Shown here: positions 15,501-18,500 of the stretch, piece after piece
How positions within the stretch are numbered: position 1 is the stretch's first letter
How the letters are laid out: every line of letters begins with the position of its first letter
Assembly: GCA_030141605.1 (NCBI GenBank)
Contig: JAQGDQ010000912.1
Coordinates: forward strand, 17,076-81,075
Origin: Tubiluchus corallicola
Taxonomy: Eukaryota; Animalia; Priapulida
Reading direction: 5' to 3'
Length of the DNA: 64,000 nucleotides
Made by a program: the position numbers and the translations under genes
The notes under the pieces: generated by a model
Seen by the model: only the letters and a program-made list of their open reading frames with translations
What the model was told of the DNA's origin: nothing
The model's database searches: none

Positions 15501-18500
15501 ATAATATTAGCTGTACTACATGGCAAGTTTGTTTTGTTATAATATAGCTGTGCTACATGGCAAGTTTGTTTTGTTATAATTTTAGCTGTACTACATGGCA
15601 AGTTTGTTTTGTTATAATATTAGCTGTGCTACATGGCAAGTTTGTTTTGTTATAATATTAGCTGTACTACATGGCAAGTTTGTTTTGTTATAATATTAGC
15701 TGTGCTACATGGCAAGTTTGTTTTGTTATAATTTTAGCTGTGCTACATGGCAAGTTTATTTTGTTATAATTTTAGCTGTGCTACATGGCAAGTTTATTTT
15801 GTTATAATTTTAGCTGTACTACATGGCAAGTTTGTTTTGTTATAATATTAGCTGTGCTACATGGCAAGTTTGTTTTGTTATAATTTTAGCTGTACTACAT
15901 GGCAAGTTTGTTTTGTTATAATATTAGCTGTGCTACATGGCAAGTTTGTTTTGTTATAATTTTAGCTGTGCTACATGGCAAGTTTGTTTTGTTATAATTT
16001 TAGCTGTACTACATGGCAAGTTTTTTTTGTTATAATATTAGCTGTGCTACATGGCAAGTTTGTTTTGTTATAATATTAGCTGTGCTACATGGCAAGTTTG
16101 TTTTGTTATAATTTTAGCTGTGCTACATGGCAAGTTTGTTTTGTTATAATATTAGCTGTGCTACATGGCAAGTTTGTTTTGTTATAATATTAGCTGTGCT
16201 ACATGGCAAGTTTGTTTTGTTATAATTTTAGCTGTGCTACATGGCAAGTTTGTTTTTTATATTGTAAGACTGTAACATTGTTGTGAAAAGTAACACAAAA
16301 CCATTGTGTCTAATTACCTCAGCCTCTGTTTTTGTTAATGTGGATTCAAGGCACAGTCGTTCGTTAGCTCCCTCAACTGGACAAGTGCTGGGAGTAACGA
16401 TGGTTGCAAAACCAACCAATTTTAAGAAAGGTTTGCTCCAACTGATCAGGTTGCCTTTATACCCAGAGTGGCAAGTTTTGGACAAGTCAGCTAAAATTCA
16501 AAAACACATTTTTGTTCAATTATACTTTCTGTTGAGCTGAACTCACGCATCTTCTAAGTGAAGTGTAAGAAGCTGCTAGTGTCTTAATTTACAACAAAAC
16601 TACATTTTATGTAAATAAGCAATCTGTTACATAAATAAGGTTGTACTTAAAATGCAACATAGAAATAAATTTATTTTTTACATTGTCACATACTTAAGAA
16701 ATGTATAGATAGGGTTTTTGTTGCTTCTTTAATGTCCATGCAATTAGTACAGTTAAAAAAGCTTTAAAAAAATAAAAGCTTGTACCAATTTCAGCTGTTG
16801 ATAGCAAGTACGTGGTCATTATGACCTCAGTGATTGCTGTGTAACCTTGTCCAATCTTCAACAAGCCACCACCAGAAATACTGTACGATTCTAGTTTAAA
16901 ACACACAATATTATATACACGAAGAAACCACTGCAAACTGTAACACAGCAGTAATAAAAAACTATTCTGCCTGTTTTTCTTTGCAAAATTTACATAATCA
17001 TAGCATATAAAAAAATGAAAAGCTATTCGACCCAAATGAGGCTTGACCGCCATGTGGACTATGTACGCAATATAGTCCAAATTAGAATTATTGTCTCACA
17101 TTTAATTTGGTGCAGACCATATCATAATTGGCCCTATCTAATCGCTTTAAATGTTCATTTGCTCTCAAAAACACTTATCAATTTTTAAGCTTTACTTTTA
17201 TTGTACCATTTAGATTGAATTTAATTACAATAACAAACTTGTTGTGCTAATTGTTTCTTAATTAGTCTGTGCAAAGCACAAAGATAAGTTTTACGTATTC
17301 CAATAGTGTATATCACCTATAAAGATGTCTATGTCGACTATGTCTATCTACGTTCAATAACAACATGATTCATGAATAAGCATTGGAGAGCCACTAACAC
17401 ACACGACAAATAAGTGTATATAAGTAATGGATGAAAACAAGCAAAAGGAATTATATGAGTGAGATGTCATTTAATTTAATTACCTTTCTCGCATACAACA
17501 TAAACTTCGTTGTTTAGCCGAGGACCTGAAGTTTCTGTCCACCAGCGCCACCTTGCGCCGTTTATTTGATCATTGATTCCTATCCACACTCTTTTCCTCT
17601 CGGGTCCGTCACCTAAAGTTTCACTCATATCATAACGATTGATCATAATGGAAAATGGAAAACAACGCCAAAATGGATCAGTAATATTATTTTCATTAAT
17701 TTCTGTAATTTCACTTACTGGTTGCCATGGTAGCGGCTTATGTCTTATGGCGGCCTCCTCGACTTGACTTTTAGATATTAATAATTATGTTATTGTAATG
17801 AAATACATTATGTATCGAATTTATTTGTATTGATAATGTGTTGCAATGAATTTCAAAATAAACGATAAAGAATGAAAAAATGAACGAATGCATGATCACG
17901 TCATATCAGACATAAATGAATCGGTATGTTTTAGACTTTTGAGTAATTTTACTAAATTTTGTAAAACAAAAGTTTCTTATCTATAGTTTATTTGCAACAA
18001 CTGAGCATCTGTTAATTATGACTGCCATAATCTTGCTTCTTTTGACGTGTATACATGTATTTAAATAACCATGTTACCCAGCTATAGCTATTGGTAATCT
18101 GTCAAAGACTCATAAGCGTTTAAAAATCTCAGTGTCAGGTTCTATATAAGGACTTTAGCATTAACTGAAAAAGTGCCTATCCTCTGCGTGTGAAAAATGT
18201 TGACGTGTGGGCGTCACGTTACGTGGGTGCTTATCTTGCATGGCTTCAATATATTTGTAAGCACAAAGGCAGAAGAATAACTCTCAAAAAGTTCCTAGAG
18301 CTTTGCCAATTGATGCAAGTACGAGAAAGGTCAAAGCACATAGAAAATAATTGTTGGAAATTGCAGCCTAGAACGCATATCAATGATTGTCCATGAACAA
18401 ACTCAATAGCTCAATCTTCCTAAGTTAGGTTATATCACCAACAAGTGATCACCAGGTGATCACCAGCCAAACTTGAAAAGCTTCGCCTACCCTAAAGTGA

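Follow-up and report, generated by a model that had tools for sequence, protein, structure and literature searches.

Loss of the pentraxin Ca2+-binding loop in one of two head-to-head priapulid lectin genes, with candidate exons for a nested C-type lectin-like domain

The pentraxin domain of gene A, one of two paralogous genes arranged head to head, with about 6 kb between them, in a 64,000-nucleotide stretch of Tubiluchus corallicola DNA (hereafter the window, meaning the whole stretch that was analysed), has lost its Ca2+ site through changes in two exons with its reading frame intact, and the intron matching intron 4 of its sister, gene B, contains two exons for a CTLD (C-type lectin-like domain) without the long loop. 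We favor, with a probability of roughly 0.55, the interpretation that gene A is a maintained, fast-evolving duplicate having a Ca2+-independent pentraxin domain with an optional nested loop-less CTLD. On this reading gene A is a diverged duplicate of gene B in which every Ca2+ ligand position has been lost, and its pentraxin domain probably still folds into a module that is independent of Ca2+ and has a structural or protein-binding function. The product is a predicted secreted multi-lectin protein, in the mRNA of which the loop-less CTLD is probably included such that it is spliced into a surface loop of the pentraxin domain; its role might be protein binding or domain spacing, with Ca2+-dependent binding of phosphocholine or sugars presumably remaining with gene B.

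Gene models and domain architectures

The window is AT-rich, intron-rich and of the animal type, with tandem repeats accounting for 16,588 of the 64,000 bases. Gene models were built from homology and splice signals. The gene A model has 14 exons on the minus strand, from 25380 to 628, and continues beyond the edge of the window, while that of gene B has 21 exons on the plus strand (31513..61696) with no stop codon within the model. All the modelled exons of both genes have AG/GT ends and their 635 (A) and 959 (B) codons are free of stops. Twelve exons of gene A pair with 12 of gene B with identical intron phases, and all 10 length differences between paired exons are multiples of 3, though this tally is partly circular since the exon ends were picked to fit the homology. 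Over 514 aligned codons the two genes show 45% amino-acid identity, with a dN of 0.47 and a dS of 1.56 (NG86).

In gene A, all exons of which are on the minus strand, the first exon (25317..25380) has a predicted start and what by eye is a weak signal peptide. It is followed in the model by the first part of a pentraxin domain, a CTLD, the second part of the pentraxin domain and two further CTLDs, one encoded by exons 9-11 (10309..14089) and full length, the other by exons 12-14 (628..4065), where the gene leaves the window. The modelled order in gene B is a pentraxin domain, three CTLDs, three ShK-like domains and a fourth CTLD. Each of these ShK-like domains (53889-58788, plus strand), sandwiched between the CTLDs, is encoded by a single exon and is detected by Pfam (E-values 3e-8, 5e-9 and 7e-5).

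A pentraxin domain probably interrupted by a second domain

A profile of P0001, P0002 and gene B, hence one with the sister gene in its seed, matched gene A with the insert removed at an E-value of 1.7e-33 (positions 3-203), and with the insert retained it matched in two pieces. The individual pentraxin exons of gene A are weak in Pfam, with one of the five showing a match (Laminin_G_3, E-value 0.0037). The start of the domain is in exon 2 (24480..24598), which also carries the cysteine equivalent to C36, the partner of which, equivalent to C97, is in exon 4 (19839..19966) along with an HHLC motif; the insertion point is at the end of the latter exon. Exon 8 (16318..16490) encodes the end of the domain, the second cysteine pair and a linker. 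Hence, gene A keeps the C36-C97 pair, the second pair and the HxC motif. We mapped the two changes onto the AlphaFold model of a relative, P0002 (mean pLDDT 84.8): here the point of insertion is in the loop that separates strands 131-137 and 149-152, and the lost segment, located between strands 149-152 and 171-179, is largely non-strand.

Loss of the Ca2+-binding loop in gene A

The segment corresponding to the Ca2+-binding loop is encoded by exon 7 in gene A (16786..16890; 105 nt) and exon 5 in gene B (34939..35085, plus strand; 147 nt). Both exons have AG/GT ends and are of phase 1-1, and a tblastn search of the window with the gene B exon recovers its gene A counterpart at an E-value of 2.4e-5. 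The sequence-only reading had proposed that gene A cleanly lost this loop by an in-frame deletion of 42 nt (14 residues) with conserved flanks. The deletion is indeed of this size and in frame, and both sides of the gap align at the DNA and the protein level. The four motifs cited for it are also present as claimed, namely TDNAILL (33921-33941) and GQDQD (34977-34991) on the plus strand in gene B and ETNIYSIVL (20508-20482) and GQGYTAI (16852-16832) on the minus strand in gene A. While the loss itself is real, its description as clean has to be tempered: six alternative placements of the gap have BLOSUM scores of 67-72, which leaves about five codons of ambiguity, and gene A has also lost or replaced the F and G preceding the next strand (CRP 152 and 154), both of which are invariant in alignment A4, making the cut less clean than first claimed.

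The gap is internal to a single exon, with 12 nt between the flanks, and this makes rescue by a micro-exon impossible; none restores the loop. The tblastn search with the gene B exon revealed no further loop exon anywhere in the window (the next match has an E-value of 0.73), which rules out an alternative exon as a means of restoring it. Assembly error as the cause of the gap is ruled out by contigs from two samples that bridge the site: X2 record 10 (16739-16871, sample S1) crosses it without an insertion, and X3 record 18 (16737-16878), from a different sample and study, crosses it without gaps and with at least 31 letters on each side. As sample S1 is possibly the source of the window itself, we count the X3 record alone as independent. 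At position 16826 all the X1, X2 and X3 contigs covering it encode D, as does gene B, in place of the E encoded in the window. Slippage from one G-Q codon pair of gene B to the other, 39 nt away, was also considered as the cause of the deletion, but the genes are too diverged to resolve such an origin.

Fate of the Ca2+ ligands

In CRP the Ca2+ ligands are D60, N61, E138, Q139, D140, E147 and Q150, as given in the accessible portions of PMC6503050 and PMC13698038. An ungapped alignment of gene B exon 5 with human CRP 127-168 yields G136, Q137, D138, Q139, D140, V147 and Q150, and exon 3 of this gene (33861..33985, plus strand) supplies the equivalents of D60, N61 and F66. At the seven ligand positions gene B thus has D, N, D, Q, D, V and Q, six of them being retained (E138 as D), and the residue at the exceptional position, 147, is also variable in other pentraxin domains. 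Going by these residues, gene B probably retains the site, as had been suggested. In gene A, by contrast, the positions equivalent to 60, 61 and 66 are occupied by I, Y and Q in exon 3 (20429..20562), as aligned via P0002 and CRP. Between Q137 and I156 it has only G-Y-T-A, with no D, E, N or Q; hence, there is no placement of the gap that spares a ligand. The proposed loss of the site in gene A is accordingly upheld and involves more than the loop: none of the seven CRP ligands remains, and D60I, N61Y and F66Q alter the pocket in a second, separate exon. By the classical ligand criterion, gene B would be grouped with the Ca2+-binding pentraxins and gene A would not.

To place the change, we compared 39 pentraxin domains from 26 proteins (P0003-P0010 and partial domain matches being excluded), a set that is biased in that the search words contained the loop and several of the proteins are near-duplicates. 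The segment from G136 to I156 is 21 residues long in 38 of the 39 and 17 in the remaining one, as against 7 in gene A. That so many of the other domains have the full segment indicates that the change is a loss in gene A. The first full CTLD of gene A (11665-11550, minus strand) likewise lacks the W..NEP motif of its gene B counterpart (41838-41947, plus strand), suggesting that Ca2+ sites have been shed in more than one domain of gene A. The pentraxin domain of gene A is therefore predicted, from its residues, to work without calcium.

A loop-less CTLD in the intron

The CTLD exons of the insert occupy the intron of gene A that matches the 454-nt intron 4 of gene B. The first (exon 5, 18845..19039; 195 nt) matches Lectin_C (E-value 0.00089) and many CTLD structures besides; the second (17484..17612; 129 nt), which spans the WIG motif to the last cysteine, weakly matches the WIG region of mincle (E-value 0.12). 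Both are of phase 1-1, and the frame of gene A is open with or without them, with 527 stop-free codons when they are skipped. Among the GT sites of the region both donors rank at the 99th percentile; the acceptors rank at the 83rd and 93rd, and no acceptor in gene A scores lower than those of exons 5 and 7 (0.8 bits each).

The insert has the N-terminal half, the WIGL-type motif and the outer cysteine pair of a CTLD, and lacks the long loop, the EPN/QPD and WND motifs and the inner cysteine pair associated with Ca2+-dependent sugar binding. From WIG to its end it has 31 residues with one cysteine, as compared to 64-79 residues with 3-5 cysteines in the six remaining CTLDs of genes A and B. Scanning three flanking introns for a third exon of the inserted CTLD yielded none that passed our filters. 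The termini of CTLDs are close together, and their canonical sugar binding requires Ca2+ site II within the long loop, as stated in the available part of PMC7618208; the shortness of the insert and its single cysteine after WIG imply that such a site is unable to form in it.

The second CTLD exon also differs between versions of the locus. In run X2 the depth over it divides among three versions of similar depth (152, 168 and 201), which may be alleles, extra copies or the product of pooled animals. The version of depth 152 resembles the window. That of depth 168 is diverged, and is the only version listed at this site in X3; among the differences listed for it in this exon are at least four amino-acid changes and at least one silent change. 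Going by the record lengths, it would also have a net gain of 24 nt, in frame, between 17516 and 17530, giving an insert of about 39 residues after WIG. In the version of depth 201, position 17190 is joined to 17594, and this 403-nt deletion (17191-17593) removes 110 of the 129 nt of the exon along with its donor; if the damaged exon were still entered, a stop would follow after 8 residues. As the first CTLD exon is symmetric, skipping the damaged second exon would preserve the frame. Elsewhere, one version lacks 9 nt (16456-16471) at the conserved C-H-S-G-Y of exon 8, such that both indels within exons for which a size could be obtained, the 9-nt one and the 24-nt one deduced from record lengths, are in frame. 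Diversifying selection on the varying insert is possible. This variation is unlike what would be expected of a domain holding an inherited main binding role, and we see the inserted CTLD as best read as an optional add-on rather than the heir to the lost site.

Probable maintenance of gene A and alternative explanations

Within the 14 exons of gene A in the window there are 635 stop-free codons, and the pairwise dN/dS is about 0.3, a value that is not assignable to the gene A branch; we therefore consider an old pseudogene, the possibility raised against the earlier interpretation, to be unlikely. For the pentraxin domain the dN is 0.42 and the dS 1.24 (NG86, 194 codons), with an uncorrected pN/pS of 0.42-0.67 on bootstrapping. 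Gene A has more private changes than gene B in comparison with all nine outgroups, which are not independent of each other, with p < 0.05 in three. It retains 15 of 35 conserved pentraxin columns as against 25 of 35 in gene B, seven of its losses being gaps, and the loss of the conserved F152 and G154 positions could destabilise its fold. The faster evolution of gene A fits relaxation just as well as neofunctionalisation. Neither protein nor Atlas searches found an orthologue of gene A; these returned none among five candidates, two shark pentraxins among 17, eight short or repeated matches and 24 proteins without this architecture, and such blanks are weak because the queries were single exons or poorly aligned fragment profiles.

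The faster evolution, the eroded conserved columns, the potential premature stop in the version with the 403-nt deletion, and the four amino-acid changes to one silent change among the differences listed in the second CTLD exon would all be consistent with gene A decaying under relaxed selection, with the loop loss and the eroding insert being tolerated damage rather than adaptation. We regard this as unlikely, since the 635 codons show neither stop nor frameshift despite a dS from gene B of over 1.2, every pentraxin cysteine is retained and the symmetric first CTLD exon lets the frame survive skipping of the damaged one. Distinctly unlikely, in our estimate, is that the CTLD exons are outside the mature message, being either a fragment left behind within intron 4 or a seldom-used cassette, gene A then being a pentraxin gene minus its Ca2+ site. 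The frame surviving the skipping of both, the lack of such exons in gene B and the deletion of most of the second exon in one version would agree with this, and phase 1-1 is the usual one for CTLD modules of these genes, such that compatibility is expected anyway; yet both exons are open and on the correct strand in the correct order and phase, with donors that are among the best of the region, and the apparent 24-nt allelic insertion is in frame.

The sequence-only reading had further proposed that the ligand binding of the pentraxin domain passed to the inserted CTLD. Both changes do occur in one gene and in adjacent exons, and by analogy to Link modules a loop-less CTLD could conceivably have a non-canonical surface to which proteins or polyanions bind. 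Nevertheless, we hold this proposal to be very improbable and did not retain it: the insert is devoid of the features needed for canonical sugar binding (site II being in the long loop, according to the accessible part of PMC7618208), the scan of the three flanking introns provided no exon to supply them and one version of the locus has lost most of the second exon. Returning to the maintained, Ca2+-independent duplicate, a more specific form of it is tentative and to our minds rather doubtful, namely that an expressed composite of the loop-less pentraxin domain and nested loop-less CTLD, with short, long or deleted inserts, provides several Ca2+-independent surfaces next to a classical neighbor.

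Relationship to known pentraxins and CTLDs

Gene B exon 5 matches zebrafish and human members of the CRP/SAP/NPTX family (PF00354) with E-values of 4e-6 to 1e-3, and both genes have in common with NP1 and ADGRG4 an extra C-terminal cysteine pair. They differ from CRP, SAP and the neuronal pentraxins in being multi-domain mosaics with tandem CTLDs, and gene A additionally in having none of the seven ligands and in its interruption by a CTLD. The closest parallel to the loss is ADGRG4/GPR112 (PDB 8b55), which has, as gene A is predicted to have, a pentraxin fold minus the Ca2+ carboxylates; folding and dimerisation of its pentraxin-like domain need no Ca2+, and this loop is disordered in it (PMC10687090). 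However, the loop, gone from gene A, is still present in ADGRG4 as a stretch that varies and is disordered (160-179), and the ADGRG4 domain belongs to a receptor and has no CTLD nested in it.

Compact CTLDs without a long loop are of the Link-module type. The insert of gene A is comparable to these in having the N-terminal half, WIG and the closing cysteine without the long loop or inner disulfide; nevertheless, we saw no match of it to the Link family, and it matches Lectin_C and ordinary CTLDs. Nesting of pentraxin domains and CTLDs, as proposed for gene A, is also found in P0024, a predicted protein of Ptychodera flava that combines CTLD, pentraxin and fibrinogen domains, but there (about residues 85-415) it is reversed, a CTLD enclosing a pentraxin domain whose Ca2+ loop is intact, and may be an artefact of gene prediction. 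Limited searches of the open-access literature brought up neither a pentraxin with this loop removed nor a CTLD nested in a pentraxin domain. Pentraxin domains free of Ca2+ and asymmetric change between duplicated lectin genes are both familiar, and there is no new mechanism here. If the gene A domain folds, this naturally occurring deletion would demonstrate that the pentraxin fold can do without its Ca2+ loop, with the intact sister gene B as an adjacent control for binding and stability; the nested CTLD, if true, would be a clear example of exons being shuffled into the interior of a domain.

Other features of the window

Several traces of mobile elements are also seen. One broken reverse-transcriptase-like fragment (23940-24203, plus strand) has a weak RVT_1 match (E-value 0.019). 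Another (28035-28700, plus strand), lacking such a Pfam match, we take to be of the same kind, and a segment at 62152-62490 (minus strand), also without a Pfam match, is by its motif presumably a remnant of a BEL/Pao retrotransposon. One intron of gene A contains a GC-rich island (4421-4909), again with no Pfam match, that is possibly a transposon end. Dispersed repeats form intronic pairs at 42135-42500/47235-47605 and 2263-2811/5529-6042, which are about 70-85% alike in translation, and short high-copy elements are located at about 17180-17335 and 19400-19460.
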